From an uncultured archaeon (GTDB lineage: Archaea > Thermoplasmatota > Penumbrarchaeia > JASLWR01), in contig CAYFHS010000005.1 of assembly GCA_964342815.1 (NCBI GenBank), positions 1-64,000 on the forward strand: a stretch of DNA of 64,000 nucleotides, in the 5' to 3' direction. Position 1 is the stretch's first letter. Each line of letters starts with the position of its first letter. The notes below the pieces were generated by a model. That model was given only the letters and a program-made list of their open reading frames with translations. It was not told where the DNA came from and did not search any database. The translations under genes were made by a program, and so were the position numbers. Positions 26,278 through 58,714 of the stretch are shown here, piece by piece.

Positions 26278-28719
26278 TTATAATAATTCATCCACTTCTC
26301 TTTCGAGAGATTTCATTTCGCTTTCTTCCAGAATCGATGGCCCCGCCGAAAGGATGATTATATTTTCACGGACAGAGGCAAGATCCTTCAGTGTCTGAAC
26401 GAGATTGAAGACACCATCGAAATCATTGTGACTGACCAGATAATCCAATCCATCCATGACCAGGACTCCGCCTTGAGAATTATTTAAGAAAGCCTCGCTT
26501 TGCTTTTTGATCGCATCCAGCTGGTTCGGCCTGAGGTTCGTTTCGCCTGGCATCTTCGTAAGCCATATGTGGGATGCGGAATCGAGCTTGTATTTTCGGG
26601 TAACCTTCCTGGGGTGGTCCCTGGTGATGAAGAATCCCTTTCGGCCTGCTTCTATGGCTTCACAGAGATGAGCGAATGCCTTCTCTGCATCATCGTTCTT
26701 AAGAAGATAGGTAAATCCGTCTTCCAGGCTGATGCCGTCCCCGGCATCAGTATCCCCCCCCCCACCTTCTCCGCCCCACGTGTCGTATTCCGACCAGTTA
26801 ACAGAACCAGCTTCGGTCATCTCTTCGCTGCTGTCCGCTTCTTTTTCAACTTGGGGCTCGGGGGATTCTACCTTCGGGATCAGGGCTTTTTCCTCACTGA
26901 AGATCTTTTCGTGTTCTTCCGCGGAGATGTCGAGAATGTCCCGTAATTCGGCCAGCATCTCCTCTTCATCTTCGGAGATAATTCCGTCCTTCAGAGCTCT
27001 CTTGACAGCTTTCCTGTATTTGTCTTCGTTTTCCTTTTTTTTATCGGTTGATGGCTGGGCCTGATTGACCTGACCCTGCGGCGGTCCGAAATAACCGGGG
27101 GCCATTCCTGGTCTCTGTGGATACTGCATGGGTGCCCCGTATCCGGGCATTTGCATATACCCGGGAGGCATTTGACCCGGACTCATGCCGCCCTCTGCGA
27201 TGTATGGTACCTTTTCCTCGATGCGTTTCTTGGCTTTTCCAGCTTTTTTTATAGCTTCTTTAAACTTGTATTGTTTTGCAAGGTTTGTTGCTTCATCCAG
27301 CATTTCCGCGCATTCCGGCAGCTCGACATTCGCTATTTTCTTTGCCTTTTTAATTAGGCTTCGTCCCACGTTGATGTTTCGAACCGTCAATTGATATTCT
27401 ATTTTGTCCACGTTGAGAACTTCCAGAGCCTCCCTGCATTTCCACTGTACGTGGTCGTGCCGGTCGCTGAGTCCGGCTATCAGATACGGTATTGACTCGT
27501 AAACGGATAGCGGCGCAGGTTTCCCGATGTTCATTATGATCTGCGCCATTCGCCACCTTACATGGTGGTATTCATCATCCATGGCATCGATGATATTGTT
27601 GATGTAGTCTTTGTATATGTCAACATTCAGTTCGCTGATGACATTGAGTGCATCCGATACGGTTTGGCGCACGTCCAGGTTCTTGTCGTTTGCAAGATGA
27701 TCGATAAGAACCGGTATTACCGACGGTATATATTCTGGAAAAAAAGGAAATAATTGACCCAGGGCTGCCGCGCAGTGGAACCGAATGTATTTTCGAGGAT
27801 CCTCCATCCTGTAGGTGAGCTGAGGGATCATATAATGAGGGTCTTTTTTCCCAACTTCCACAATGAACTTTGTGATATGTTCGCGCAGCTGCTTCTTATC
27901 AATATCGAGGGCATCCATTAAGGCTGGAAAAAGAAATTTGATATTCTGGGTCAGCATGAATAAAATCTTTCTTACCGTCTCGATCAGATTCCTATCCTTG
28001 TCCAGGAAGGCGGTGGTTACGGAGGGTACCACTGCATTGGGGAGTACCACACCTACCATGGTCAGTGTCTGGATCGCACAGTGTTTCATGTCCTCCTCTT
28101 TTTTCTTCAGCGGTTTGATCCAGAACTGAAAACGATACGAGTCAACAAGCGCCTTGTATACTAGAGGTATCGCTTCTTTTGTTACATATGCAGGAGCTAC
28201 GCGACCCAACTGTCCTATGGCCTTGATGGAAGCCGCATAAAGGAGATGAAGGCCATCAACCGGGTGTTCCGGGTGGTATATGGGGTATTTCAAAGTACGG
28301 ACCATCTGATTCAGGCACTTGGCCCCGATATCGGGGAATTTCTCTGAGATGTTCCCCATGGCCCACATCACGTTTGCGTATGGCTCCCAATTCAATTCTT
28401 CGTCGGAATGATCCTTTGTGAAAACCTTGTTCAGGATATCAATAAGCCGACCGGCCTCGCTTCCAATGGCCTTTGCCTGGAGTTTGGAGAACTCCAATAC
28501 CAACTTCGAAGCCGTCATACGAACTTCAGCATCGCTGTCCCTTAATAATGGAATTATATATCTTGCAACGGAAGAAATCTGTGAAGGGCTCCTCCTGCAG
28601 TTTGATCGTATCGAATCCATTTTCTTTATCTTGCCAGTGCTGGATGCACCTTTCAGCGTTTCTGCAATAGCTCGTCCCTGGGACATGTCAACACCGGTAT
28701 TATTATTATTTAGTATCAC
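26278..28719 (-). CDS. HEAT-repeat protein with Pro/Gly/Gln/Met-rich linker, TerB-like helical motif and C-terminal DUF835
   Basis: HEAT motifs (LLRDSDAEVRMTAS, MEDPRKYIRFHCAAALGQL, MDDEYHHVRWRMAQII); DUF835 motifs GFFITRDHP, IWLT, VMDGLDYL, LEREVDE. True start may be ATG 28686. Confidence 0.85.
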   Translation of the reverse strand: MILNNNNTGVDMSQGRAIAETLKGASSTGKIKKMDSIRSNCRRSPSQISSVARYIIPLLRDSDAEVRMTASKLVLEFSKLQAKAIGSEAGRLIDILNKVFTKDHSDEELNWEPYANVMWAMGNISEKFPDIGAKCLNQMVRTLKYPIYHPEHPVDGLHLLYAASIKAIGQLGRVAPAYVTKEAIPLVYKALVDSYRFQFWIKPLKKKEEDMKHCAIQTLTMVGVVLPNAVVPSVTTAFLDKDRNLIETVRKILFMLTQNIKFLFPALMDALDIDKKQLREHITKFIVEVGKKDPHYMIPQLTYRMEDPRKYIRFHCAAALGQLFPFFPEYIPSVIPVLIDHLANDKNLDVRQTVSDALNVISELNVDIYKDYINNIIDAMDDEYHHVRWRMAQIIMNIGKPAPLSVYESIPYLIAGLSDRHDHVQWKCREALEVLNVDKIEYQLTVRNINVGRSLIKKAKKIANVELPECAEMLDEATNLAKQYKFKEAIKKAGKAKKRIEEKVPYIAEGGMSPGQMPPGYMQMPGYGAPMQYPQRPGMAPGYFGPPQGQVNQAQPSTDKKKENEDKYRKAVKRALKDGIISEDEEEMLAELRDILDISAEEHEKIFSEEKALIPKVESPEPQVEKEADSSEEMTEAGSVNWSEYDTWGGEGGGGDTDAGDGISLEDGFTYLLKNDDAEKAFAHLCEAIEAGRKGFFITRDHPRKVTRKYKLDSASHIWLTKMPGETNLRPNQLDAIKKQSEAFLNNSQGGVLVMDGLDYLVSHNDFDGVFNLVQTLKDLASVRENIIILSAGPSILEESEMKSLEREVDELL
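26754..26763. repeat. C10 homopolymer (G10 on the coding strand) inside the HEAT/DUF835 gene
   Basis: tatcccccccccca; encodes part of EGGGGD in the linker just upstream of DUF835. Confidence 0.9.
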
Positions 28720-42957: not shown

Positions 42958-45564
42958 CTAATATATCACCTTGTCGGCTTCCCTTTCGAGAAGCTTCAGT
43001 TCTTGCTCTTGGAAGGTAGCTGGACTAAGGGGAATGAGAAGGGTTCCCTTGGCCATGGAGACCATATCTCCCGATGCCTGTAAGAGTTTTAGAATGGAAC
43101 TGAAAGTATTGTGCGTGATCAAGTATTCCACTCCATCCAGTAGTATAATTTTTTTAACTCCATTTTCTTTAAGATGTTTTCTGAAAGCAAAACGCAGTTT
43201 CTCGGTATCCGTGGGTCTCAGAGCGTGTTCCTCGGGCACGTTAGTGAGCCATAGATACGGTACGTTCCTGAGATCGTATTTCTGAATGATCTTGTTGGGA
43301 TATTCTCTGGTAATGTACATTCCGCTGTAACCACGATTGATCATCTGCTTAAAGATGTTGAAGGCTCTTGCTGGTGTGGATTCTTCAAAGAGATATATAT
43401 ATCCCTTACCTGCCTCTACGGTCATGGTATCTTTTTCAACATCCACTTTTTTGGGTTTTTTCTTCATCTCCTTCTTTTTCTCAGGATAGGACTCGAAATA
43501 GTCCGAGTAATAATCGCTGTATTTGTCATAGAGCATGAAATCCGTAGTAAGGCCCGCCGGATGGTATTCCGGGGCTTCCTTGTCTTCGGGCATCCAAACT
43601 GGAATTGCGATCTCGTCCTTATCTGACCAGTAGGGGGCGGGAACTTTAAGGATATTCGAGGGTTCCTTGATACGGTAACGCCCGTTCCTTCCGATCTTGA
43701 GAACGCTCTCGTCCACCGGTGGCGGTATTTTTTCTTCTTCCCATTTTACCCGGAGATCCATTTCATCCATGAACATGTAATTCAACAAAGCAAGGTTCAC
43801 CTCATTATGTGAATAGAGGGTCAATATGAGAAGGAAAATCCCCTTCTCAGTTGGGGATGGTTTGACTATGGCCTCAAGACCGTATTCGTAAGATGTACTC
43901 TTCGAAGTGAAGCGAAGTATGATTGATTGTTTATCACGACTCATTTCCAATGCCTTGAATCCTCTATCTTTAGATATTTCCTGGATTATTGGTATGAGGT
44001 GCTGTGGAAGAAGTGATGAAAATCTCTCTGAAACCAGTTTGGATTTTTTCTGGATGAATTTGTCCCAAGTGGTATCGCGTATATTCAGGGGCGACATCTT
44101 GGGCCATACGTTGCTTAAAGTGAATTTCTTCAGGTACAATTCCTTTTTTTCACCATTGGTGAAATAACTCATTTGACACTGTCCCGAAGACCGCCCCTCC
44201 TGTGAAGTAGGTATGAATCGTATTGCATAGGTTTTGGCAGTATTTTCCTTCAATATCTGCTGCTTGATGGGGCTTTTCCTGATGTTGAATATGGGTTCGT
44301 CCAACTCGGTCTCGATAACAAGGTCCTGAATGGGTGAGTCGGTGGCGTTTTCTACCTGGACAAGGAGAATTGCAACACCCTTTCTGGACGTCAGGTTTGA
44401 TTTTACTACAATTTTTTTCTCCACCGCGAAGGGTTGAAAATCCTTGATTTTCTCCGTTTTCTTCGACTTGGGAGTCTCTTCCATCCATTCGTCCTCGACC
44501 TGTTCGCTCACTTTTGCCAGTCCTACATCCTTTTGGGACTCGAATATTTTTTCCAGTGTGTCGATGAGCGTGAAACGAACGTCGCACTCCTTTTCTTCGT
44601 CCTCGACCAATACATCTTTCTCATTCAACGTACGAAATCCCTTCTCGGCCGTATCTATGTTCTGGTGTCTTCCGGCGGTATTTTTCGTCCAGAGAAGCTT
44701 TCCGTTCCGATCGAACATGAATAGATTGAACTTATCGGTCCCCACCAGAAGATATTCGCCCCAGTCATCAGAACAGATTGTAAGTATCCTCTCATTGATA
44801 TTTACGGCCCATTCGAAAGCGGAATTTGCATTTATACTAAGCACGGTCATGTTGTGGAGCGCAACTTTCACCCCCCTTCCGTGGTAGGTGAACTGCTTTA
44901 TCCCACCCAAAAACATAAGATCATAGTAACTTTCGTCTTCAGGATCGAAGATATGCAGTACTCCCTTCTTTCCCCCACAGGAATCCACGAATCCCGTAAA
45001 TCCTTTACTTATACTAATTTTATCGATCTTACCATTTAGGTCGATCTTTCCCTTCTTTACGAGTTTCCGGCCGACGGTGTCTATAATATAGACGTACCCT
45101 CTCTTCGTAACGGAGATTATCATGTGCTTATGAAAGAAAGCAAATACGGGATTCTTCCAAGCTTCCAGGCGCTGGGATGAAAGTTTGTTACCCTTACCGT
45201 CGTATAGGAGGATCTGGGAATCGGAAGTACCGGCCACACACATATCGGAAAATCTATTTACCGATAGAGATGAAATGCTGACATCCACCGTCTTGCTCCA
45301 AAGAAGCTTTCCCTCCATATTCAGGCACCCGATGGAATCGGCCCTCCTTTTTCCAATGCTGTAAACATATATTTTATTATACGCAGGTGAGACCGCTATC
45401 AGCCGAACCTGATCCTTTGTAGTCACTTCCCAGAGCACATCCCCAACTTTGTTTAAACACATCAAGCTCGGGTCGGGATAGCCAAGAGCCACATACGCTC
45501 TATTGAGTTCGCTATCGTATTTCACATACCATATTGCCCGGGGAGAAGTATTCGTCATGACCAC
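42958..45564 (-). CDS. Cytoplasmic beta-propeller (PQQ/WD40-like) protein with central beta-sandwich/platform-like region and C-terminal DUF835
   Basis: Propeller repeats (GKLLWSKT, GEYLLVGTDKFNLFMFDRNGKLLW); no signal peptide; DUF835 motifs GMYITREYP, LWLT, LLDGVEYLITHN, LEREAD. Confidence 0.82.
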   Translation of the reverse strand: MVMTNTSPRAIWYVKYDSELNRAYVALGYPDPSLMCLNKVGDVLWEVTTKDQVRLIAVSPAYNKIYVYSIGKRRADSIGCLNMEGKLLWSKTVDVSISSLSVNRFSDMCVAGTSDSQILLYDGKGNKLSSQRLEAWKNPVFAFFHKHMIISVTKRGYVYIIDTVGRKLVKKGKIDLNGKIDKISISKGFTGFVDSCGGKKGVLHIFDPEDESYYDLMFLGGIKQFTYHGRGVKVALHNMTVLSINANSAFEWAVNINERILTICSDDWGEYLLVGTDKFNLFMFDRNGKLLWTKNTAGRHQNIDTAEKGFRTLNEKDVLVEDEEKECDVRFTLIDTLEKIFESQKDVGLAKVSEQVEDEWMEETPKSKKTEKIKDFQPFAVEKKIVVKSNLTSRKGVAILLVQVENATDSPIQDLVIETELDEPIFNIRKSPIKQQILKENTAKTYAIRFIPTSQEGRSSGQCQMSYFTNGEKKELYLKKFTLSNVWPKMSPLNIRDTTWDKFIQKKSKLVSERFSSLLPQHLIPIIQEISKDRGFKALEMSRDKQSIILRFTSKSTSYEYGLEAIVKPSPTEKGIFLLILTLYSHNEVNLALLNYMFMDEMDLRVKWEEEKIPPPVDESVLKIGRNGRYRIKEPSNILKVPAPYWSDKDEIAIPVWMPEDKEAPEYHPAGLTTDFMLYDKYSDYYSDYFESYPEKKKEMKKKPKKVDVEKDTMTVEAGKGYIYLFEESTPARAFNIFKQMINRGYSGMYITREYPNKIIQKYDLRNVPYLWLTNVPEEHALRPTDTEKLRFAFRKHLKENGVKKIILLDGVEYLITHNTFSSILKLLQASGDMVSMAKGTLLIPLSPATFQEQELKLLEREADKVIY

Positions 45565-45912: not shown

Positions 45913-45918
45913 GGGAGG
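45913..45918 (+). promoter_or_regulatory. Shine-Dalgarno site for the first aldolase-Fae gene
   Basis: GGGAGG ending 8 nt before ATG 45927. Confidence 0.7.
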
Positions 45919-45926
45919 AAATCCTT

Positions 45927-47354
45927 ATGAAATTTGAACCGAAGGGTGTCAATCCGGCCCTGGTCACTCCTTTCCACACGGACGAGAGGATAAACGAGGA
46001 AGGGTTAAGAGCGCTCATCAGAAGCGTGATTCCACATGTGGACGGGATAGTACCCTGCGGTACCACAGGTGAGTTCGCATATCTATCAATAGCTGAGAGA
46101 AAACGGTTGTTCGAGATAGCATTGGACGAGGTGGGTGGAAGGGTTCCGGTTATCGCGGGAACGGGAGCATGTTCAACCCGACAAGCCGTGGAACTTACTA
46201 CCTTCGCTCATGATATCGGTGCTTCGGCTGCTCTGGTAGTTAGTCCGTATTATCTCACTCCATCCGATAAAGGATTCTTTCAACATTATAAAACGGTTGC
46301 AGACTCATGCCCGATACCGATATTGATGTACAATATACCACAGGTCACAGGTTCATTTATACCCAGCAGGGTCATTGAAGATATTTCCCATATACCAAAT
46401 ATCGTTGGCCTCAAGGATTCCTCCGGGGACCTGACGTATACCATGGAAATATTGGATCGTGTACAGGGCCGGATAAATGTAATGATCGGGCATGACGAGG
46501 TAGTCCTTCCAGCATTGGCAGGGGGCTGCAAGGGGATGATACTGGCAAGCGCCCAGGTCTTCCCGGATGTTTGGCAGCAAGTCTACAAAGCAGTTGGGAA
46601 CTCCGATCTTGTTACTGCGAGGAAACTGCAGATGAAAGTGCAAAAACTGGCAAGGATGTACTGTAGAATGGGAGGTTCGGTTCCCGTTAAGGCATCTCTG
46701 AGAATTATGGGAATACCTGTGGGCCGCGCAAGGAGACCGTTGATGGAAGGGGGTTCGATACTTCACGAAGATTTAGCCGAGATCAGGGTTGAACTTGAGA
46801 AATTGGGCAAGGTCCCCAGGGATCAAACGGATATTGGACTGTCCTCGCCTTCGATCGGGGATAGTTTGAGAGACTTTGGCCTCAGCGACGGGGATTTGGC
46901 CAGCAGGGAATATCCTTTTTCATGCGGATCCGTAGATGAGGGAGCTGAAAGTGTGGCGGTCCACATGGTTGCAGGAAACAAGGAGGGGAAACTAGGCCGA
47001 TTGTTCGCATATCAGCTTACATATCCAAAGCACGGTTATGAGGCATTGACCACGATACTCGAACCGAATTTGGCAGTACGTCCATCCACACTGATAATAC
47101 CCGGTGTGATACAGAAGAACCTGAGACAGGCGAATATGATATTCGGCCCGGTACAGTCCGCCTGCGCCCGAGCAATCGCGGACAGTGTCGAGGATGGGAT
47201 CATCCCGGCAAACAAGACGAAAAGCGTTGTGATGATCGCAAAGGTTTATTTGTCTCCAAATGCTTCCGCGAGAGAAATCATCTATCGGAACAGCTATTCT
47301 GTTTTCAAAACGGTACTGAAAGAAATTTTTTCCGAACGGGGGGGTGTTGATTAA
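45927..47354 (+). CDS. DapA/NAL-family class I aldolase fused to a degenerate formaldehyde-activating enzyme (Fae) domain (paralog A)
   Basis: GTTGE, SPYY, YNIP and GLKDSSG (Schiff-base Lys codon 46413-46415). From about 46911: EPNLAVRPSTLIIP..KNLRQANMIFGPVQSACARAIADSVEDGIIP, matching archaeal Fae. Confidence 0.88.
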   Translation: MKFEPKGVNPALVTPFHTDERINEEGLRALIRSVIPHVDGIVPCGTTGEFAYLSIAERKRLFEIALDEVGGRVPVIAGTGACSTRQAVELTTFAHDIGASAALVVSPYYLTPSDKGFFQHYKTVADSCPIPILMYNIPQVTGSFIPSRVIEDISHIPNIVGLKDSSGDLTYTMEILDRVQGRINVMIGHDEVVLPALAGGCKGMILASAQVFPDVWQQVYKAVGNSDLVTARKLQMKVQKLARMYCRMGGSVPVKASLRIMGIPVGRARRPLMEGGSILHEDLAEIRVELEKLGKVPRDQTDIGLSSPSIGDSLRDFGLSDGDLASREYPFSCGSVDEGAESVAVHMVAGNKEGKLGRLFAYQLTYPKHGYEALTTILEPNLAVRPSTLIIPGVIQKNLRQANMIFGPVQSACARAIADSVEDGIIPANKTKSVVMIAKVYLSPNASAREIIYRNSYSVFKTVLKEIFSERGGVD

Positions 47355-48830
47355 ATGACGAGGACCACATGGTTGAAAGGCGTTTTTCCCGCGCTGGTCA
47401 CTCCATTCGACAAGAGGGAGAGAATCGATGAAGAGGCGTTCCGCTCCCTTATCAGACATCTATGGGCGGACGTGACCGGTTTCGTTCCCTGTGGGACCAC
47501 CGGGGAGTTCATGTACCTCTCCGAGAAGGAAAAAAGGAATTTGCTGGATATTGCCGTTGACGAGGTAGGTGGAAAAAAACCGGTGATCGCCGGAACCGGC
47601 TGTCCCAGCACAAGGGAGACTCTGGAATTGACCCGCTACGCAAAAGATATCGGAGCTACAGCTGCTCTGGTGGCATCCCCGTTCTACTTCAAGCCCAGCT
47701 TCAACGAACTTTACGAACACTTTGAGAGATTGAACGAACTGGACTTTCCGCTTATCATGTACAATATTCCTCAATGCACCGGTACTCATAAAAAATGGTG
47801 GACCGCCGAGGGGATCGCTATGCTGGACAATGTAATCGGAATAAAAGATTCCAGCGGTGATTTCCCCTTCCTCATGGCCTTGTTCGAGAAGGTACGGGAC
47901 AAGATATCTATAATGTGCGGACACGACGAGATAGGGATGCCGGCCCTGGCGGCCGGAGCCGACGGACTGATACTGGCCAGCGCGAACCTGATTCCGGATA
48001 TATGGCAGAAGATACGAGGATCGGTGTTGGAGGGGGATCTTGAGGCCGCCCGTTCACTTCAGGCGGGGATACAGAAATTGGTGAGGATAGTGGTCAGATG
48101 TGGAGCCAATCAGGCAGTAAAAGAAGGACTGGGAATGATGGATCTCCCCGTTGGCAGATCGAGGCTGCCTATTATGCCAGGAGGGGTTTTCAAGCGGGAG
48201 GACAGGGAAGAGCTGCGGATACAGTTGGAGAATCTTGGTAAAATTCCACAAAGAATGGTGGATTTCGACCTCGGTGACGGTGAACCGTTGCAAAGCCGGT
48301 ATCCACGGATTCCATCCACACCTGACACAATTGGCGATTTCACCATGAAGATCGGAGAGGGATTTGCTGGACCGCCCGTGTTCGAAGTAGCGCATATCGA
48401 CCTGCTTATAGGCTCAAAAGGTGGGCCGGTGACTTATGCCATCGAGGAGGTGATCAAAAGATATGAGGTGAACGAGAATGATCCTTCGAAGTTGATTATG
48501 GATCGTCCCCGCACTCTCCTTGTTCCCACTATCACGGTGAGGACGAAAAGGCAGGCGGGATATATCTATGGTGACGCATCCGAAGGTGTAGTTCTCGCTA
48601 TCGAAAAATCCATCGAGGACGGTGTGCTGCCTGATGGAATCCTAGATAGATTGGATATAATAGTCAATGTTTTCGTCCACCCGGCAGCCAGGAACCGGCA
48701 GAGAATAAAATTCAATAATTACAAAGCCATGCTCCATGCAGTGAAGAGAGCACTGGAAGAGCGGCCGACAATGGACGATATTATGTACGAAAAAGCGGCT
48801 GCAAGGCATCCGTTCAGGTACGAACCTTGA
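47355..48830 (+). CDS. DapA/NAL-family class I aldolase fused to an Fae domain (paralog B)
   Basis: GTTGE, SPFY, YNIP and GIKDSSG (Lys codon 47844-47846). From 48345: MKIGEGFAG..EVAHIDLLIG.KGGPV..PRTLLVP..VFVHP..NYKA..AVKRAL..HPF. ATG abuts the stop of paralog A. Confidence 0.9.
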   Translation: MTRTTWLKGVFPALVTPFDKRERIDEEAFRSLIRHLWADVTGFVPCGTTGEFMYLSEKEKRNLLDIAVDEVGGKKPVIAGTGCPSTRETLELTRYAKDIGATAALVASPFYFKPSFNELYEHFERLNELDFPLIMYNIPQCTGTHKKWWTAEGIAMLDNVIGIKDSSGDFPFLMALFEKVRDKISIMCGHDEIGMPALAAGADGLILASANLIPDIWQKIRGSVLEGDLEAARSLQAGIQKLVRIVVRCGANQAVKEGLGMMDLPVGRSRLPIMPGGVFKREDREELRIQLENLGKIPQRMVDFDLGDGEPLQSRYPRIPSTPDTIGDFTMKIGEGFAGPPVFEVAHIDLLIGSKGGPVTYAIEEVIKRYEVNENDPSKLIMDRPRTLLVPTITVRTKRQAGYIYGDASEGVVLAIEKSIEDGVLPDGILDRLDIIVNVFVHPAARNRQRIKFNNYKAMLHAVKRALEERPTMDDIMYEKAAARHPFRYEP

Positions 48831-51062: not shown

Positions 51063-52241
51063 ATGAAAGAACCCGTTATAATATCCGCCGTTAGAACAGC
51101 TCTGGGAAAGTTCAATGGAACCCTCAAGAACATGCCTGCGGTAAAACTTGGCAGCCTGGTAATCGGAGAGTCCGTAAAACGTGCTGGAATTTCGAAAAAT
51201 GATGTGGATGAAGTGATTATGGGAATGGTGCTGCAGGCAGGAGCCGGGCAGAACCCGGCACGCCAGGCAGCTCTAGGGGCCGGTATCCCGGAGAACAAAG
51301 GCTGCATGACCATCAACAAGGTGTGCGGTTCAGGTCTGAAATCCATTATGATCGCGGCCAATTCCATAAAGGCAGGAGAGCATGAGATCATCGTGGCAGG
51401 GGGGATGGAGAATATGGCTAAAGCGCCCTATTATCTGTACAAGGCAAGGGACGGTTACAGAATGGGGGATGGGAAGATCGTCGATGGAATGGTTTACGAC
51501 GGATTGTGGGAAGTTTACAACGATTTCCATATGGGTATTACAGGAGAGCGCATCGCTGAACATTACGATCTCACAAGGGAAGAGGTGGATGCTTTTGCCG
51601 TAAGAAGTCACCGTTTGGCAGCAGCGGCGGCGGAGGGAGGAAAGTTCGCCGAAGAGATAGTTCCCATCGAGATCCCACAGAGGAGAGGAGACCCGGTTAT
51701 CTTTGATAGTGACGAGGGGATACGGGCAGATTCCTCGGTGGAAAAGCTGGCTAGGTTAAGAGCGGTTTTTAAAAACGACGGTCTCGTAACAGCCGGGAAC
51801 GCCTCCCAGATATCGGATGGAGCTTCGGCCGTAGTGGTCACCAGCCGAGAAAAGGCCGTGGAGCTGGGAATTCCGATCCTGGCAAAGATCGTGGATTATC
51901 ACACCTCCGGCTGCGCGCCTGAAGACGTGATGGAGGCGCCAGTACCCACCATGAGGGAGATAATGGAAAGGAATAATCTAAGCATTGGGGACTTGGACCT
52001 CATCGAACACAACGAAGCCTTTGCATCGGCATCATTGGCCATACAGAAGGAGTTCGACATTCCCGAGGACAAGTTCAACGTACACGGCGGCGGCGTTGCT
52101 CTGGGTCACCCCATAGGAGCCAGTGGTGCAAGGGTGCTCACCACCCTGATATATGCCATGAAGGACCGAGGTGCCAAGCTGGGGCTTGCAACACTTTGCC
52201 TTGGCGGCGGTAATGCAGTGGCAATGATAATTGAAATGTGA
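51063..52241 (+). CDS. thlA: Acetyl-CoA C-acetyltransferase (canonical thiolase)
   Basis: NKVCGSG (Cys nucleophile), NEAF, GHPIGASG and CLGGG all intact. Confidence 0.96.
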   Translation: MKEPVIISAVRTALGKFNGTLKNMPAVKLGSLVIGESVKRAGISKNDVDEVIMGMVLQAGAGQNPARQAALGAGIPENKGCMTINKVCGSGLKSIMIAANSIKAGEHEIIVAGGMENMAKAPYYLYKARDGYRMGDGKIVDGMVYDGLWEVYNDFHMGITGERIAEHYDLTREEVDAFAVRSHRLAAAAAEGGKFAEEIVPIEIPQRRGDPVIFDSDEGIRADSSVEKLARLRAVFKNDGLVTAGNASQISDGASAVVVTSREKAVELGIPILAKIVDYHTSGCAPEDVMEAPVPTMREIMERNNLSIGDLDLIEHNEAFASASLAIQKEFDIPEDKFNVHGGGVALGHPIGASGARVLTTLIYAMKDRGAKLGLATLCLGGGNAVAMIIEM

Positions 52242-52267
52242 TTTATTCGTAAAACGGAGGGAAAAAT

Positions 52268-53122
52268 ATGGCTATACAGAAGATTGGAGTGATAGGTGCC
52301 GGGACCATGGGTCACGGGATCGCGCTGGTATCCGCAAAAAGCGGTTACGACGTCATAATGAGAGATATCGAAGAAAGGTTTATTGAAAAGGGACTTGCCA
52401 ATGTCGAGAAATTCCTCAAGAGAAGCGTTGCTAAGGGTAGGATGAGCGAAGAAGAGATGACACTCGTCCTGGCAAGAATAAGTACAACGGTGCATATGGA
52501 AGACCTGCAGGACTGCGACCTCATTATTGAGGCGATAATCGAGAATGCCGATCTCAAGAAAAAGGTTTTTTCCGAACTGGATAGTTACTGTCCCCCGGAA
52601 ACCATATTTGCATCGAATACATCCACGATCCCCATCACGGAAATGGCATCGGCCACGGAACGCCCGGACAGGTTCATCGGAATGCATTTTATGAATCCCG
52701 TCCCCTTGATGAAGCTCATCGAGGTCATCAATGGTCTCAGAACCTCGAGAGAGACCACCGAAGTTATAATGTCGCTTGCCGGGGACCTCGGAAAGATTCC
52801 CATAGAGGTAAATGATTATCCGGGATTCGTTGCCAACAGGATACTTCTGCCCATGATCAATGAGGCTGCGTACTGTCTAATGGAAGGTGTTGCAACTAGA
52901 GAGGCAATCGACGGGGTGATGAAACTGGGGATGAACCATCCCATGGGCCCTTTGGCCCTGGCAGATCTTATCGGCCTTGACGTATGCCTTTTCATCATGG
53001 AAGTTCTATACGATGGCTTTTCCGATTCGAAGTACAGACCCTGCCCTCTGCTCAAGAAAATGGTCAATGCCGGTTTCCTGGGCAGAAAGTCCGGTCAGGG
53101 ATTTTACGACTACAGCAAGTGA
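52268..53122 (+). CDS. hbd: 3-hydroxybutyryl-CoA / 3-hydroxyacyl-CoA dehydrogenase
   Basis: [35 protein letters not shown]. Confidence 0.95.
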
Positions 53123-53146
53123 TCTCACCACATGGAGGTTTATCTC

Positions 53147-53908
53147 ATGATAGACGTTTCAAGAGAAGGAAATACCATAATATTGACAATAAACAACCCC
53201 CCAATGAACGTTCTCAACAGTGAATTGTTGAACGAACTTGGCGGGGTTCTGGATAAGATCAAGAACGACGATTCGTTGGCAGTCATAATCACCGGCGAGG
53301 GAAGAGCATTCGTGGCAGGCGCGGACATTAAGGAAATGATGAATATGGATCCGGAGGAGGCGAGGCTGTTCGCCAGCATAGGTCAATCGGTCTTCAACAA
53401 GATCGAGCAACTGCCCAAACCGGTAATCGCTGCTGTTAACGGATTTGCCCTGGGTGGTGGTACCGAATTGGCCATGAGCTGTGACATTATACTTGCTTCC
53501 GATAAAGCGAAGTTCGGGCAGCCCGAGGTCGCTCTCGCAGTGATACCCGGATTTGGTGGGACGCAAAGACTATCCCGCATAGTAGGAAGGAACATCGCCA
53601 AGGAATTGATATATTCAGGCAGTATAATCGGTGCGGACGAGGCCTATCGCATCGGTCTTGCCAACAGGCTGCTGCCCCCCGAAGAACTCATGGAGGCGGC
53701 AAAGAAACTTGCGGATACCATCTCGAAAAAGGGTCCCGCCGCGGTGAGGTTGGCAAAAGAGTCCATAAACGGCGGTCTGGATATGACCCTGGGTGATGGG
53801 CTCGAGTACGAGGCCGTCAAGTTCTCGGAGTGTTTCCGAACATTTGACCAGAAGGAAGGAATGGATGCCTTCGTAAATAAACGAAAACCCGATTTCCGAG
53901 GTGAATGA
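53147..53908 (+). CDS. crt: Enoyl-CoA hydratase (crotonase)
   Basis: AFVAGADI, ALGGGTEL, FGQPEV..PGFGGTQRL with both catalytic Glu. Start probably ATG 53147 (GGAGGT upstream; ORF track 53132). Confidence 0.95.
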   Translation: MIDVSREGNTIILTINNPPMNVLNSELLNELGGVLDKIKNDDSLAVIITGEGRAFVAGADIKEMMNMDPEEARLFASIGQSVFNKIEQLPKPVIAAVNGFALGGGTELAMSCDIILASDKAKFGQPEVALAVIPGFGGTQRLSRIVGRNIAKELIYSGSIIGADEAYRIGLANRLLPPEELMEAAKKLADTISKKGPAAVRLAKESINGGLDMTLGDGLEYEAVKFSECFRTFDQKEGMDAFVNKRKPDFRGE

Positions 53909-53971
53909 GGAGCATTAGCTCCAAGATTATTCTCTCCCCTGCAGCATAAGTAAAAGTGGAAGGGTGGAACA

Positions 53972-55105
53972 ATGGATGTTTTACTCAACGACGAGCAGAG
54001 AAAGATAAGAGAGACCGTTAAGCGATTTGCCGATGAAGAGGTAATTCCGGTTGCTTCCGAGTTGGACCGTGAGCACAGATGGCCCGGGGAACTGCTGGCA
54101 AAGATGGGTGAAATGGGGCTAATGGGTATGCCTGTTCCGCAGGAGTACGGTGGTGCGGGCGCTGATTATCTCTCCTATATGATCGCCGTGGAGGAACTTG
54201 CCAGAGCTTGGGGTTCATTGAGTCTTATCATGACGGTCCATACTTCCGTGGGAACCCTGCCCATATATGATTTTGGAACACCTGATCAGAAGGAAAGGCT
54301 GCTGAAACCCCTTGCCCAGGGTAAGATGATCGGTGCTTTCGCCCTTACCGAACCGGAGGCAGGCTCTGACGTGTCGGGTGTCAAAACCACCGCTGTAAGA
54401 GATGGCGCTGATTATATTCTCAACGGATCGAAGATTTTCATAACTAACGGCAGCAGAGCAGGAACTATCATAGTTCTTGCTGTAACGGATAAGGATGCCG
54501 GAACGAAGGGATACAGTACCTTCATTGTCGAAAAGGGGATGGACGGATTCACTCTGGGGGTGGATGAAGACAAGTTGGGATTGCACTCGTCCGTAACTTC
54601 GGAGCTGGTTTTCAACGATGTAAAAATACCGAGGAAAAACTTATTGGGAGCCGAAGGAGATGGATTGAGAATTTCCCTTTCGGCACTTGACGGAGGGAGG
54701 ATGGGTGTTGCTTCCCAGGCAGTTGGGATCGCAAGAGCGGCTCTGGAGGAATCCATAAGATATTCAGGTGAACGGCAGCAGTTCGGCCACCCAATAAACC
54801 GTTTCCAGGGAATATCCTTCATGCTTGCAGAAATGGCCACCGAGGTTGATGCCGCGAGAGGTCTTGTCTACCGCGGTGCCTTTATGAAAGAGCGCGGTAT
54901 GCGTATCTCGAAAGAGGCCGCCATGGCAAAGCTGTATGCTTCCGGAGTGGCGGTCAGAACAACTACAAAGGCCATCCAGGTTCACGGTGGATACGGATAT
55001 ATTGCCGATTATCCGGTTGAGAGATTTTTCCGGGATGCGAAAGGCACCGAGATATACGAGGGTACTTCCGAAATACAGCGCCTTGTAATATCGAGAAACC
55101 TATGA
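53972..55105 (+). CDS. bcd: Acyl-CoA dehydrogenase (short-chain/butyryl-CoA type)
   Basis: FALTEPEAGSD, GSKIFITN, QVHGGYGY, RDAKGTEIYEGTSEIQR. Confidence 0.93.
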   Translation: MDVLLNDEQRKIRETVKRFADEEVIPVASELDREHRWPGELLAKMGEMGLMGMPVPQEYGGAGADYLSYMIAVEELARAWGSLSLIMTVHTSVGTLPIYDFGTPDQKERLLKPLAQGKMIGAFALTEPEAGSDVSGVKTTAVRDGADYILNGSKIFITNGSRAGTIIVLAVTDKDAGTKGYSTFIVEKGMDGFTLGVDEDKLGLHSSVTSELVFNDVKIPRKNLLGAEGDGLRISLSALDGGRMGVASQAVGIARAALEESIRYSGERQQFGHPINRFQGISFMLAEMATEVDAARGLVYRGAFMKERGMRISKEAAMAKLYASGVAVRTTTKAIQVHGGYGYIADYPVERFFRDAKGTEIYEGTSEIQRLVISRNL

Positions 55106-55265
55106 TGGATTTTCAATCTTAAAAAGACCTTTAATACGAGTTAGGACAATTCATCTTCAGAATATAGAACATAAACACCGAAATCATTAACTTAAATGAG
55201 ATATTACGTATTCTCGAGATAATTAATTTATGTAATAATTTATTGCTAAAAATATAAAAAACCGA

Positions 55266-55273
55266 GGAGGTGA
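55266..55273 (+). promoter_or_regulatory. Strong Shine-Dalgarno site
   Basis: GGAGGTGA ending 4 nt before GTG 55278. Confidence 0.7.
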
Positions 55274-55277
55274 AAGA

Positions 55278-56537
55278 GTGACAAGAAGAGTGTGTGTGAT
55301 AGGGATTGGACACACAGATTTCAATTCTATGACACCGGATATAGAATGGAAGGAACTAATGTACGAGGCTTGCCAGAAAGCTTATGTTGACGCCGGAATA
55401 GACCCCAGGAAAGACGTTGACAGTTTCATTACCTGTGCCGAGGATTATCTGGAAGGTTTCAGTATATTTGATGAATTCGTGCCCGATCAGATAGGCGCCG
55501 TGCTCCGCCCTTGCGGTACGGTATGCGGTGATGGGATCTACGGATTAGGAAATGCATATATGCAGATAAAGACCGGTCTAATGGACGTTGTGGCAGTGGA
55601 AGCTCATAGTAAGGTATCTGACCTATTAACTTTCGGTGAGATCGTGCTACATGCATTTGATCCCGTATTCGAAAGACCGGTGGCTGGTCCCGTGGAAAGG
55701 CCAAATTTTGCAGGTTCTCCCACATATACGAAGGAAAGCCCCAAACCCCTTGTGGGAAGTAGTGACGAAAAGGAGCGGCTCCATCCGTACTTTTTAGCGG
55801 GGTTGGAGATGCAGCATTACCTTAAAAAGACCAATACCACCGAGGAACAATGCGCTGAGGTGGTTGTAAAGAACAAGTTTAACGCTTTTAATAATCCTTA
55901 TGCGGATTATGAGGCAAAGATCTCAGTGGAGGATGTCATGGATTCAGAGTATCTCTTCAATCCACTGAAGAGTTTGGAGATCAGTCCCAACGTTGACGGA
56001 GCGATTGCCTTTGTCCTTGCCGATGAGAAGACGGCAAAGAGCCTAGGAGTAGATCCGATATACATGTCCGGATTCGGTTGGTCATCTGAAACACCGTGGC
56101 TTTCGACAAGAGGATTGGATGCAGGTTATGCGACCAATGCGGCGAAGATGGCCTATAAGATGGCAGGTATAAAAAAGCCCAGAAAGGAAATCGATATCGC
56201 AGAGGTGGATGATCGGTTCTCCTACAAGGAGTTCCAGCATCTCGAGGCCCTGAAACTGGCGAGACCCGGCGAACCGGCTCATCTGCTGGAAGAGGGCGAA
56301 CTGGGTCAGGGAGGTTCGCTCCCCACGAATATGTCGGGAGGATCGCTGGGAGTTGGCAACTGCCTGGAGGCCACGGGTCTGCAGAAGTCTCTTGAGATCG
56401 TGACCCAGCTGCGAGGATTCGCTGGGAAGAGACAGGTGGCCGATGCGAAGCTTGGAATCGCCCAATCTTGGCGAGGTATTCCATCGGGAAGCGGTGCCGT
56501 GGCGATCTTTTCAAGCGATAATGAGGTGATGAAATGA
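55278..56537 (+). CDS. Non-canonical thiolase-fold protein, Ltp4-like
   Basis: EDYLEG..DQIGAV..D..Y.L.NAYMQIKTG recalls mycobacterial Ltp4. NEAF/HDCF is replaced by DDRF and GHP by GNC. Stop overlaps the next ATG (ATGA). Confidence 0.8.
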   Translation: MTRRVCVIGIGHTDFNSMTPDIEWKELMYEACQKAYVDAGIDPRKDVDSFITCAEDYLEGFSIFDEFVPDQIGAVLRPCGTVCGDGIYGLGNAYMQIKTGLMDVVAVEAHSKVSDLLTFGEIVLHAFDPVFERPVAGPVERPNFAGSPTYTKESPKPLVGSSDEKERLHPYFLAGLEMQHYLKKTNTTEEQCAEVVVKNKFNAFNNPYADYEAKISVEDVMDSEYLFNPLKSLEISPNVDGAIAFVLADEKTAKSLGVDPIYMSGFGWSSETPWLSTRGLDAGYATNAAKMAYKMAGIKKPRKEIDIAEVDDRFSYKEFQHLEALKLARPGEPAHLLEEGELGQGGSLPTNMSGGSLGVGNCLEATGLQKSLEIVTQLRGFAGKRQVADAKLGIAQSWRGIPSGSGAVAIFSSDNEVMK

Positions 56538-57694
56538 AAGATGTAGCAGTGATCGGAGGCGGAATGACCATGTTTCGCAGAAGATTAAAGGAAACCGGCA
56601 AGGAGCTGTCCTATCTGGCTGCGAAGATGGCTATGGAAGAGGCCGGTATAGAGAAGAGCGACATTGATATGGTTGTAATGGGTAGCGCTCCGGATGCGTT
56701 CGACGGCATACACCAGAAGGGTGAGAACCTGTTGGACGGTGCCGCAGGGGCGGGAAAACCATATGTAAGAGTTTTTAACGGAGGCGGGACATGTGTTTTC
56801 GCACCCATCGCTGGGTGGTGGCACGTAGCCTCCGGCGTAGCGGATGTAGCACTTGTTGTCGCCGAGGAGAAGATGGGCTCCACCTATCCCCATCCTCAGA
56901 CCGCCTTCCGGCATATCTGGGACCCCATACTGGACCGTCCACTCAATCCCAACCTCGTTTGGTTGTTCGCCATGGAGATGAACCGGTATATGACAAGATA
57001 TAATATCAAAAAAGAGGACATAGCGAGGGTGGCTGTAAAGAACAAGAGGAACGCAGTTGGTCATCCCTGCGCACAGCTGGCTGATCCGAACATAACCGTT
57101 CAAGACGTTCTGGATTCGGAAATGATGGCATGGCCGGTCCAGCGCTTGGATATCAGCCCTCCCAGCGACGGGGCAGCGGCATTGGTTTTCTGTTCCAAGG
57201 AAAAAGCGAGGGAATTCTCGGATGATCCAAGCTGGATCTCGGGAGTGGGATGGAATATCGACAGCACCATGTGGACGAACAGGGATCTCGTCTTCCCACA
57301 GTACGTGGCCAATGCGGCAAAGATGGCCTACAAGATGGCAAGGATAACAAATCCGCCCAAGCAGATCGACTTTGCTGAACCGTACGACCCCTTCGATTAC
57401 AAGGAGCTGCATCACATGGAGGGATTGATGCTGTGCAAGAAGGGAGAAGCTCCCACACTTACAAGAGAGGGAGTGACACAGAGGGATGGGGATCTACCGA
57501 TATGTCCTTCCGGAGGTCTGTTGGGTGTTGGTAATCCCATAGCAGCGACCATGGGACAGAAGGTGGCCGAACTCCACTGGCAGCTAACAGGAAAAGCAGG
57601 AAAGAGGCAGATACCAGGCGACCCGAGAGTGGGTGTTGCCCAGGCATGGGGAGACATCATGCAGATGGGTACTGTGATCGTTATGGAGAAGTGA
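56534..57694 (+). CDS. Non-canonical thiolase-fold protein, Ltp3-like (probable aldol-lyase subunit)
   Basis: VMGSAPDAFDG..GKPYVRV recalls Ltp3. No Cys at the CxS nucleophile position (NGGGT); YDPF replaces HDCF; GNP replaces GHP. Confidence 0.82.
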   Translation: MKDVAVIGGGMTMFRRRLKETGKELSYLAAKMAMEEAGIEKSDIDMVVMGSAPDAFDGIHQKGENLLDGAAGAGKPYVRVFNGGGTCVFAPIAGWWHVASGVADVALVVAEEKMGSTYPHPQTAFRHIWDPILDRPLNPNLVWLFAMEMNRYMTRYNIKKEDIARVAVKNKRNAVGHPCAQLADPNITVQDVLDSEMMAWPVQRLDISPPSDGAAALVFCSKEKAREFSDDPSWISGVGWNIDSTMWTNRDLVFPQYVANAAKMAYKMARITNPPKQIDFAEPYDPFDYKELHHMEGLMLCKKGEAPTLTREGVTQRDGDLPICPSGGLLGVGNPIAATMGQKVAELHWQLTGKAGKRQIPGDPRVGVAQAWGDIMQMGTVIVMEK

Positions 57695-57695
57695 G

Positions 57696-58244
57696 GTGAT
57701 GAAAATGGCGAAAAAGATAGAAGGATATCCTAGGTATGCACCCGGAACACATGTTTCCACAAAGGATATCGTGGACAACAAAATCTCATACACCTGGTGG
57801 GAACCCGAGGTCCAGTATTCGTGGAGTCTCGGCCCCGCAATGAGCAAATTCCTTCAGGAACTCAAGAAGGGTCAGCTCGTGGGGAGGAAATGCAGAAAAT
57901 GCCGAAGGGTTTTGGTACCCCCCAGAATGTTCTGCGAACTCTGTTACGGCCCTACGAACGAATGGGTCGATCTCCCCGATACGGGGATGGTGGAAACCTT
58001 TTCCATCTCATACTTGGATGCGGACGCAAGGAGAATAAAGGTCCCGATATTGATAGGTGTCATATCCATCGACGGCGCAGCTCCCCTTCACGGTTTCATG
58101 CACTATTTCGGCGAGATGGAACCCGAGGAGCTTCACATCGGGATGAAAGTGAAGGCTGTTTGGAAACCCAAGGCCGAAAGGGAAGGCTCCATTACCGACA
58201 TAAAGTATTTCAAACCCTTGAAAAAGGGAGGTGGCAAGAAATGA
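57696..58244 (+). CDS. DUF35 (Zn-ribbon + OB-fold) acyl-CoA-binding partner
   Basis: KCRKC..LVPPRMFCELC; G.VETFS; IGMKVKAVW..REGSITDIKYF. Confidence 0.92.
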   Translation: MMKMAKKIEGYPRYAPGTHVSTKDIVDNKISYTWWEPEVQYSWSLGPAMSKFLQELKKGQLVGRKCRKCRRVLVPPRMFCELCYGPTNEWVDLPDTGMVETFSISYLDADARRIKVPILIGVISIDGAAPLHGFMHYFGEMEPEELHIGMKVKAVWKPKAEREGSITDIKYFKPLKKGGGKK

Positions 58245-58714
58245 CGTTCCTTGAAAAACAGACCGATCCCACAACACCCATGCACTGGCGGGGTGACATG
58301 CAGGCCGATTATCTTTATCCGAACGGAGCTGCGGGGGACAAGTTCTTCCAGCATCTCATGAAAAAGGATACGTTCCTTGCGTGCCGCTGCCCCAAGTGCG
58401 AGAAGGTGTACTGCCCGCCAAGGCTTTACTGCGAGGATTGCTTCTGCGAGATTCCAGACAAGGAATGGCGTGAGGTTCCCTCGAAAGGAAAGATACGGCT
58501 TCATACCACGGTAATGATCGACACCCATGGTCATAAATTAAAGGAACCCAAGGTCATAGCTCTGGTGGACATCAAGGACACGGACAGCTCAATGCTGGGA
58601 ATAATCAAGACAAAGAAACTGGACAAGGACCTTTGCGGGCATAAGGTAAAGGCTGTCCTTCGATCCAAGAAGAAGAGAGAAGGAACCCTGAAGGATATCC
58701 TCTATTTCGAGTGA
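58241..58714 (+). CDS. Second DUF35 (Zn-ribbon + OB-fold) protein
   Basis: True start ATG 58241 overlaps the previous stop (ATGA), with GGAGGTG upstream; RCPKC..YCPPRLYCEDC. The ORF-track start at 57797 is an overlap artefact. Confidence 0.9.
   Translation: MTFLEKQTDPTTPMHWRGDMQADYLYPNGAAGDKFFQHLMKKDTFLACRCPKCEKVYCPPRLYCEDCFCEIPDKEWREVPSKGKIRLHTTVMIDTHGHKLKEPKVIALVDIKDTDSSMLGIIKTKKLDKDLCGHKVKAVLRSKKKREGTLKDILYFE

Follow-up and report, generated by a model that had tools for sequence, protein, structure and literature searches.

Adjoining aldolase-Fae fusion genes in an archaeon of the Thermoplasmatota and their possible part in carrier-linked formaldehyde exchange

The gene pair and its domains

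The window considered here, a stretch of 64,000 nucleotides taken at its full length, comes from a sediment or ocean archaeon of the Thermoplasmatota whose genome is 88.9% complete, and on its forward strand it carries two open reading frames (ORFs), 45906/45927-47354 and 47355-48830, referred to below as genes A and B (Table 1). Each encodes a barrel of the dihydrodipicolinate synthase (DapA, DHDPS) family fused to an Fae domain, and the ORFs and domain matches confirm what an earlier sequence-only reading of this DNA had described, namely two adjoining genes with this fusion. That reading had also placed the start of A at 45927, which proves to be right given the ribosome-binding site in front of it and the homologues, which begin at the corresponding methionine. 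The stop codon of A (TAA, 47352-47354) abuts the ATG of B at 47355 with no gap, and the two proteins are 40% identical across both domains. A literature search for an aldolase-Fae fusion found no relevant paper among those it covered, in keeping with the earlier statement that no enzyme of this architecture is known to have been characterised. The pair is real, conserved and uncharacterised.

Table 1. Positions of the gene pair, its domains and the X-related ORFs. Residue numbers of A follow protein P0001, in which Tyr142 is the equivalent of Tyr133.
Feature	Position	Strand	Basis or remarks
Shine-Dalgarno-like GGGAGGA	45913..45919	+	7 nt 5' of the A start codon; read from sequence
Gene A (475 aa counted from the Met at 45927), class I aldolase barrel derived from DapA, with 'A-type' Fae half	45927..47354	+	profile matches, homologues
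Aldolase barrel of A, PF00701	45939..46748	+	GTTGEF, Tyr142, Lys170 in KDSSG, GHDE; Val at the Arg138 position
Fae-like domain of A	46932..47354	+	EPNL loop and GPxQ kept; His of the catalytic motif and C-terminal RHPF tail gone
TAAATG junction, A stop/B start	47352..47357	+	sequence; G-rich stretch 8 nt upstream
Gene B (491 aa), the other aldolase barrel, with 'B-type' Fae half	47355..48830	+	profile matches, homologues
Aldolase barrel of B	47373..48212	+	GTTGEF, Tyr136, Lys164 in KDSSG, GHDE, Tyr111; Cys at the Arg138 position
Fae domain of B	48351..48815	+	GE..G..E.AH.DL (His347/Asp349), VFVHP and C-terminal RHPF.Y.P kept; 5 residues of the EPNL loop and GPxQ gone
X of the window genome (G000), 421 aa	contig C12:40034-41278; locus L025:9032-10297	-	61% identity to Asgard X
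Short X-like ORF	L007:6610-7551, L008:7020-7961; also L011, L012, L014		

The C-terminal domains had been taken for Fae, and both score as such, passing the cut-offs of PF08714 (A, E 2e-32, 113 bits; B, E 3e-30, 106 bits; cut-off 27) and of TIGR03126 (123.1 bits for A and 122.4 for B against 118.05). What does not stand is the implied picture of two independent, complete domains, as the motifs of the two subunits, set against those of 47 sequences of free-standing Fae or of Fae-Hps, show them to be complementary halves. The domain of A aligns to positions 6-136 of the 159 in the profile, with no His in AHxDL and no RHPF tail; that of B aligns end to end with Fae of Methylobacterium extorquens (PDB 1y5y/1y60; E 1.6e-19), with AHIDL, VFxH and HPF conserved. 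The PN(L) loop, GPxQ and a conserved Asp (Asp426 in the window A, found in 98% of A) are kept by A alone, and the N-terminal GE, the His and Asp of AHxDL, VFxH and the C-terminal RHPF tail are kept by B alone, in which the PNL loop has a deletion of five residues. Neither subunit holds all the Fae motifs, together they hold the full set, and the same complementary pattern recurs in two deeply divergent pairs.

Fae is described as oligomeric, with its coenzyme held at the interface of adjacent subunits. Because retention of the motifs is complementary, and because the coenzyme site lies between subunits, the A:B pair would be expected to form one composite Fae site, and the residues themselves point to a heteromer of A and B. 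A structure prediction of the A+B complex lends this some weak backing: it reached an ipSAE of 0.43, with 0.00 for the best of three controls, the runs agreed in at least 99% of contacts and partner pLDDT was at least 87. Of 80 solved complexes, 58 reach the mark that was applied, as do 2 of 110 mismatched pairs, though values that pass it and do not exceed 0.60 were given by only 7 of the 80 solved complexes and by both of the passing mismatches. Furthermore, as DHDPS dimers and Fae pentamers have been solved, the pass may reflect memory of known structures.

The barrels match the PF00701 DHDPS profile at E 5e-72 (A) and 1e-67 (B). Homologues of A with the same architecture number more than 120 (52-84% identity) and those of B about 120 (61-82%), and conservation was followed in an alignment of about 120 A-type and 117 B-type sequences. 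GTTGEF (Thr44/45), the Tyr of YNIPQ (Tyr133), the Schiff-base Lys of KDSSG (Lys161) and GHDE are essentially invariant in both types. Arg138 of DHDPS binds the carboxylate of aspartate semialdehyde; the corresponding position varies in A, with Val in 38%, and is Cys in 84% of B. Both the loss of this Arg and the GHDE motif, first remarked in the two window proteins, are therefore borne out across the homologues.

A third gene of the DHDPS family is found on contig C4 of the same genome, with a score of 284 bits to PF00701, YNIKGRTG (in which Arg138 is present) and GDD. It lies between dapB and asd and follows an aspartate-kinase-like ORF, making up a lysC-dapB-dapA-asd cluster. The earlier suspicion that the fusions are unlikely to be lysine-pathway DapA is upheld by this separate, canonical dapA, whose existence had been left to be checked, and by the loss of Arg138 in both barrels; judged by sequence, A and B are not lysine-pathway DapA. 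Their public name, 4-hydroxy-tetrahydrodipicolinate synthase, arises because A passes the cut-off of the dapA equivalog TIGR00674 (227 bits against 206.15), which B, at 194.5 bits, does not. By sequence the barrels come closest to DapA (2yxg, labelled dihydrodipicolinate synthase, is the best PDB hit), with which they share GTTGE, Tyr133, Lys161 and, in B, the equivalent of Tyr107, and the fusions depart from it in lacking Arg138, in having GHDE for GDD, in the extra Fae domain and in their position outside the lysine cluster.

Tyr107 of DHDPS extends into the active site of the partner subunit. Its equivalent is Tyr in 96% of B (Tyr111) and Phe in 61% of A, an asymmetry that hints at an asymmetric A:B dimer. 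Just past YNIPQ, B has the invariant, B-specific residues His145, Trp148, Trp149 and Thr150, where A has another conserved stretch, P-R-R-V; this region of B is near the expected entrance to the active site and could form a carrier-binding or channel surface.

Conservation, protein X and the one-carbon carrier

A precedes B in all of the 11 loci compared, which include Thermoplasmata chromosomes, close relatives and the two divergent pairs, in which the Fae domain of B shares no more than about 38-39% identity with that of the window B. Direct abutment is not universal, as one Thermoplasmata chromosome has a 66-aa DUF6485 ORF between the two genes (L009:9463-9663). Scanning genome contigs with a single protein as query returned close relatives only. 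The Fae family as a whole is small, with 312 clusters at 50% identity and E 1e-3 or better, and a census of its domains brought out the cluster P0133, an aldolase-Fae fusion encoded by one gene in which every Fae motif is intact. The relatives of P0133 (more than 120 clusters, 84-98% identity) carry the labels Promethearchaeota, Hodarchaeota and Thorarchaeota, that is, Asgard lineages. A single-gene form with all the motifs fits a duplication followed by subfunctionalisation, and from these sequences we read the pair as the duplicated, subfunctionalised descendant of a single fusion.

The family ranges over Thermoplasmatota and Asgard lineages and is abundant in sediment archaea, with further members in metagenome-assembled genomes labelled Hadarchaeum and Chloroflexota. 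A range taken from record labels needs care, because the A-type proteins P0093 and P0094 are nearly identical, yet one is labelled Chloroflexota bacterium and the other Candidatus Hadarchaeum sp.; at least one of these bin assignments is doubtful.

The immediate neighbours of the pair are not conserved within the clade of the window. There is, however, a protein, X, that recurs beside fusions elsewhere: at Asgard loci an X of 428 aa is encoded 20 bp 5' of the fusion, and one Thermoplasmata chromosome has a divergent form of it, at 23-26% identity, upstream of A. Directly upstream of A in five Thermoplasmata loci there is a shorter ORF of 306-347 aa (313-aa protein), whose best ESM Atlas clusters (about 316 aa, with Peptidase_U32 in 17-23% of members) are the same as those that match the X barrel best in shape, and which looks like a short relative of X. 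This short ORF was not found in the window genome. The X of the window genome is unlinked to the pair and lies among housekeeping genes. Across the phylum sample of 251 genomes, X is present in 4 of the 5 that bear the pair and in 22 of the 246 others, counts taken over related genomes that are not independent and that do not amount to a statistical test.

Neither Pfam nor NCBIfam has a family for X or for its 313-aa relative. The predicted fold of X, with a pLDDT of 88.5, is a helical domain together with a TIM barrel (an earlier prediction from an alignment of three sequences, at pLDDT 39.9, was unusable). Searches with this fold returned generic TIM barrels only, Foldseek giving class II aldolases at E 1e-4 with TM 0.33-0.45 and VIA many unrelated barrels at Z about 12, and a feature search of the ESM Atlas gave mixed, low-recognition matches. 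As the matches are to generic TIM barrels only, the function of X cannot be derived from its fold.

More can be drawn from its neighbours. X is directly followed by a homoserine dehydrogenase gene in 16 of 19 X loci, all of them from pair-less Thermoplasmatota genomes, and further along the same 19 loci are genes for an aldehyde:ferredoxin oxidoreductase (9), an aldehyde dehydrogenase (5) and a class I/II aminotransferase (11). At one other locus (L043; G020:C1:33200-46500) X stands beside a gene of the HpaB/4-hydroxybutyryl-CoA-dehydratase family, an ADP-forming acyl-CoA synthetase-like gene and one for a pyridoxal-phosphate decarboxylase, and not beside homoserine dehydrogenase. X thus ties the fusions, indirectly, to the metabolism of 4-hydroxy-C4 compounds, homoserine and aspartate semialdehyde. 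The link to homoserine-type C4 metabolism that had been proposed for the fusions gains support to this extent, by way of a recurrent neighbour and the operons in which X meets homoserine dehydrogenase; the support is indirect.

Coupling to tetrahydromethanopterin (H4MPT), which had also been proposed, is not supported for the organism of the window. The only two Fae domains in its genome are those of A and B, and neither Mch nor Ftr was found in it. The sample for carrier genes consisted of the five pair-bearing genomes among the 251, with three further Thermoplasmata genomes for Mch only: Mch was not found in any of these eight pair-bearing Thermoplasmatota genomes, two of which are closed chromosomes, nor Ftr in any of the five, the window genome included in each case, and FolD is present in all five. 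The sole sampled genome with a free-standing Fae has Mch, as does the genome of one of the divergent pairs (L018). Canonical Fae is described as specific for H4MPT. Since Mch and Ftr are missing from these pair-bearing Thermoplasmatota, an Fae-type site in them cannot feed the classical H4MPT pathway, and we would guess that the carrier in the window organism is probably tetrahydrofolate-like.

A possible enzyme and its alternatives

The interpretation that we put forward, as one that is possible though somewhat short of probable, is that A and B would be the subunits of one conserved heteromeric enzyme, a class I 2-oxo-acid aldolase that exchanges formaldehyde with a tetrahydropterin. Each subunit would consist of a DapA-derived Schiff-base aldolase barrel for 2-oxo acids with a C-terminal Fae-type domain, and following an ancient duplication of a single fusion gene each copy of the Fae domain would have kept one face of the cleft between subunits, so that an A:B pair would build a single composite site for pterin and formaldehyde. 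The barrel would most likely catalyse, reversibly, the aldol addition of the enamine of pyruvate, or of a close 2-oxo acid, to formaldehyde, which would be passed to or from the tetrahydropterin at the Fae site and would never be free. The likely overall reaction, for which our confidence in the exact substrates is lower than in the enzyme type, is 4-hydroxy-2-oxobutanoate (HOB) + tetrahydropterin <-> pyruvate + methylene-tetrahydropterin, and it may run in either direction. The carrier in this organism would probably be of the folate type rather than H4MPT, and the enzyme would probably share a pathway with the TIM-barrel protein X encoded on contig C12.

Taken further, A and B together with X and an aminotransferase might make up a natural, carrier-linked route between C1 and C4 compounds (methylene-tetrahydrofolate + pyruvate <-> HOB <-> homoserine), with an Fae-type site taken over for folate in archaea devoid of methanopterin metabolism. 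In this extended form we think the proposal unlikely; were it true, the engineered homoserine cycle would have a counterpart in nature.

Several observations weigh against the formaldehyde-exchange proposal. Canonical Fae is described as specific for H4MPT and yet the hosts are without that pathway, so the ligand of the site may be another compound, or there may be none. The two barrels each retain a full catalytic set, which a simple model with one site does not need. The link through X fits aspartate semialdehyde as the shared metabolite equally as well as it fits HOB. Nor do the distributions of homoserine dehydrogenase (Hom) and ThrC single out the genomes with the pair: the window genome has ThrC, with Hom not found, but the same is true of 16 other sampled genomes, most of them pair-less, and the pair occurs in only 3 of the 17 ThrC-positive, Hom-negative genomes, whilst one pair-bearing genome has Hom and one is without X and ThrC. 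The idea that the pair replaces homoserine dehydrogenase was considered separately and set aside, Hom being missing from 4 of the 5 pair-bearing genomes but also from 154 of the 251 overall.

A further point against concerns the GHDE motif, which resembles the GxDE of the sialic-acid (sialate) lyases; the latter binds sugar hydroxyls, and the likeness would suggest a larger, hydroxylated aldehyde. It leads to the explanation that the barrels are ordinary pyruvate-dependent lyases for such an aldehyde, acting on a 2-keto-3-deoxy sugar acid in the manner of KDG, NAL or YagE enzymes, and that the degenerate Fae domains are a scaffold for oligomerisation or regulation with no formaldehyde or pterin chemistry. 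The missing H4MPT pathway of the hosts would be accounted for, as would the fact that neither Fae domain is complete alone, and after dapA the next-best NCBIfam models are NAL and HpaI-like, with YagE among the PDB hits. Yet the NAL- and KDG-type models all score far below their cut-offs (A/B, 174/172 bits for NF003164 with a cut-off of 281; 150/150 for TIGR00683, 382; 113/115 for NF040954, 390). Moreover, what survives of Fae is its set of canonical conserved residues, invariant and strictly complementary across deep divergence, which is the signature of a conserved composite site and not of decay, and none of the Fae motifs is lost in the Asgard single-gene form, with its 84-98% identity. 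We consider a sugar-acid lyase unlikely on this evidence, and find it distinctly improbable that the enzyme still uses aspartate semialdehyde, condensed with pyruvate or another 2-oxo acid, with the Fae part as an accessory and with X, homoserine dehydrogenase and the aldehyde oxidoreductases centred on the same compound. That A exceeds the TIGR00674 cut-off, that the best PDB hits are DHDPS structures and that in its operons X is directly followed either by homoserine dehydrogenase or by the fusion, both of whose enzyme families act on aspartate semialdehyde, are all as this explanation would have them; the family-wide loss of Arg138 in both subunits, the score of B below the dapA cut-off and the canonical, Arg138-bearing dapA in the lysine cluster of the same genome are not.

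The same chemistry with another 2-oxo acid would make the pair a non-homologous analogue of PanB, which transfers a hydroxymethyl group from methylene-tetrahydropterin to C3 of a 2-oxo acid; 2-oxoisovalerate would then be turned into ketopantoate for coenzyme A synthesis, and PanB was indeed not found in any of the five sampled genomes that bear the pair, the window genome among them. PanB is however present in only 65 of the 251 genomes of the phylum, and because 181 genomes that have no PanB have no pair either, its absence does not predict the pair. Given also that a context of X, homoserine dehydrogenase and aminotransferase offers no link to pantoate, this role would seem very improbable.

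Known systems and neighbouring genes

The closest known system to the A/B fusions is the archaeal Fae-Hps (bifunctional 5,6,7,8-tetrahydromethanopterin hydro-lyase/3-hexulose-6-phosphate synthase, NF009833), in which a formaldehyde-handling aldolase is likewise fused to Fae and formaldehyde is presumed to move between the aldol step and the pterin carrier with no release. In A and B the aldolase is instead a class I Lys barrel of the DHDPS type, and not an Hps of the orotidine monophosphate decarboxylase type, the Fae domain is C-terminal and not N-terminal, the Fae site is split over two paralogous subunits, and neither Mch nor Ftr was found in the host. Accordingly the fusions score only 101 (A) and 92 (B) bits to NF009833, whose cut-off is 274, and match it in its Fae part only. 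Fae of M. extorquens differs in that the canonical enzyme stands alone, as a homo-oligomer whose subunits are identical, and has H4MPT for its partner, whereas here two non-identical, half-degenerate domains are tethered to barrels in a genome with no H4MPT pathway.

As for the reaction, PanB (ketopantoate hydroxymethyltransferase, PF02548) is the nearest known type to that proposed for A and B, but it is metal-dependent, has a single domain and is unrelated to them in sequence. The proposed reaction itself has been used in the synthetic homoserine cycle as its HOB aldolase step, in which pyruvate and formaldehyde are condensed to HOB, described as a non-native metabolite, that is then transaminated to homoserine (PMC8879981). 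In that engineered pathway the step is performed by promiscuous E. coli RhmA, a class II metal aldolase acting on free formaldehyde, in contrast to the class I barrel with a predicted carrier-binding domain of A and B.

Should the heteromeric formaldehyde-exchanging enzyme prove real, it would mark two firsts, a class I aldolase with proven direct transfer of formaldehyde to or from a pterin carrier and an Fae-type site operating outside the H4MPT pathway, and would be a clear case of a single active site split across two paralogous subunits. A natural enzyme for pyruvate and formaldehyde would be of interest in the design of synthetic pathways of formaldehyde assimilation. The family is at present uniformly mislabelled DapA, which distorts reconstructions of lysine synthesis and hides a possible link from C1 to C4 compounds.

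The neighbours that the window pair has in common with close relatives are a DUF835 propeller protein, a 425-aa ORF and a GT4 glycosyltransferase only, and are uninformative. The first of these (42958-45564, minus strand) is divergent to A and keeps its position in the two closest relatives (L010 and L015). It is one of two large proteins of the window with a C-terminal DUF835, in this case with a beta-propeller; the other, encoded at 26278-28719 on the minus strand, has HEAT repeats. Beyond the pair, a cluster of the beta-oxidation type (thiolase, 3-hydroxyacyl-CoA dehydrogenase, enoyl-CoA hydratase and acyl-CoA dehydrogenase) lies at 51063-58714, and is followed by two thiolase-like genes and two genes for OB-fold proteins of the DUF35/ChsH2 type.

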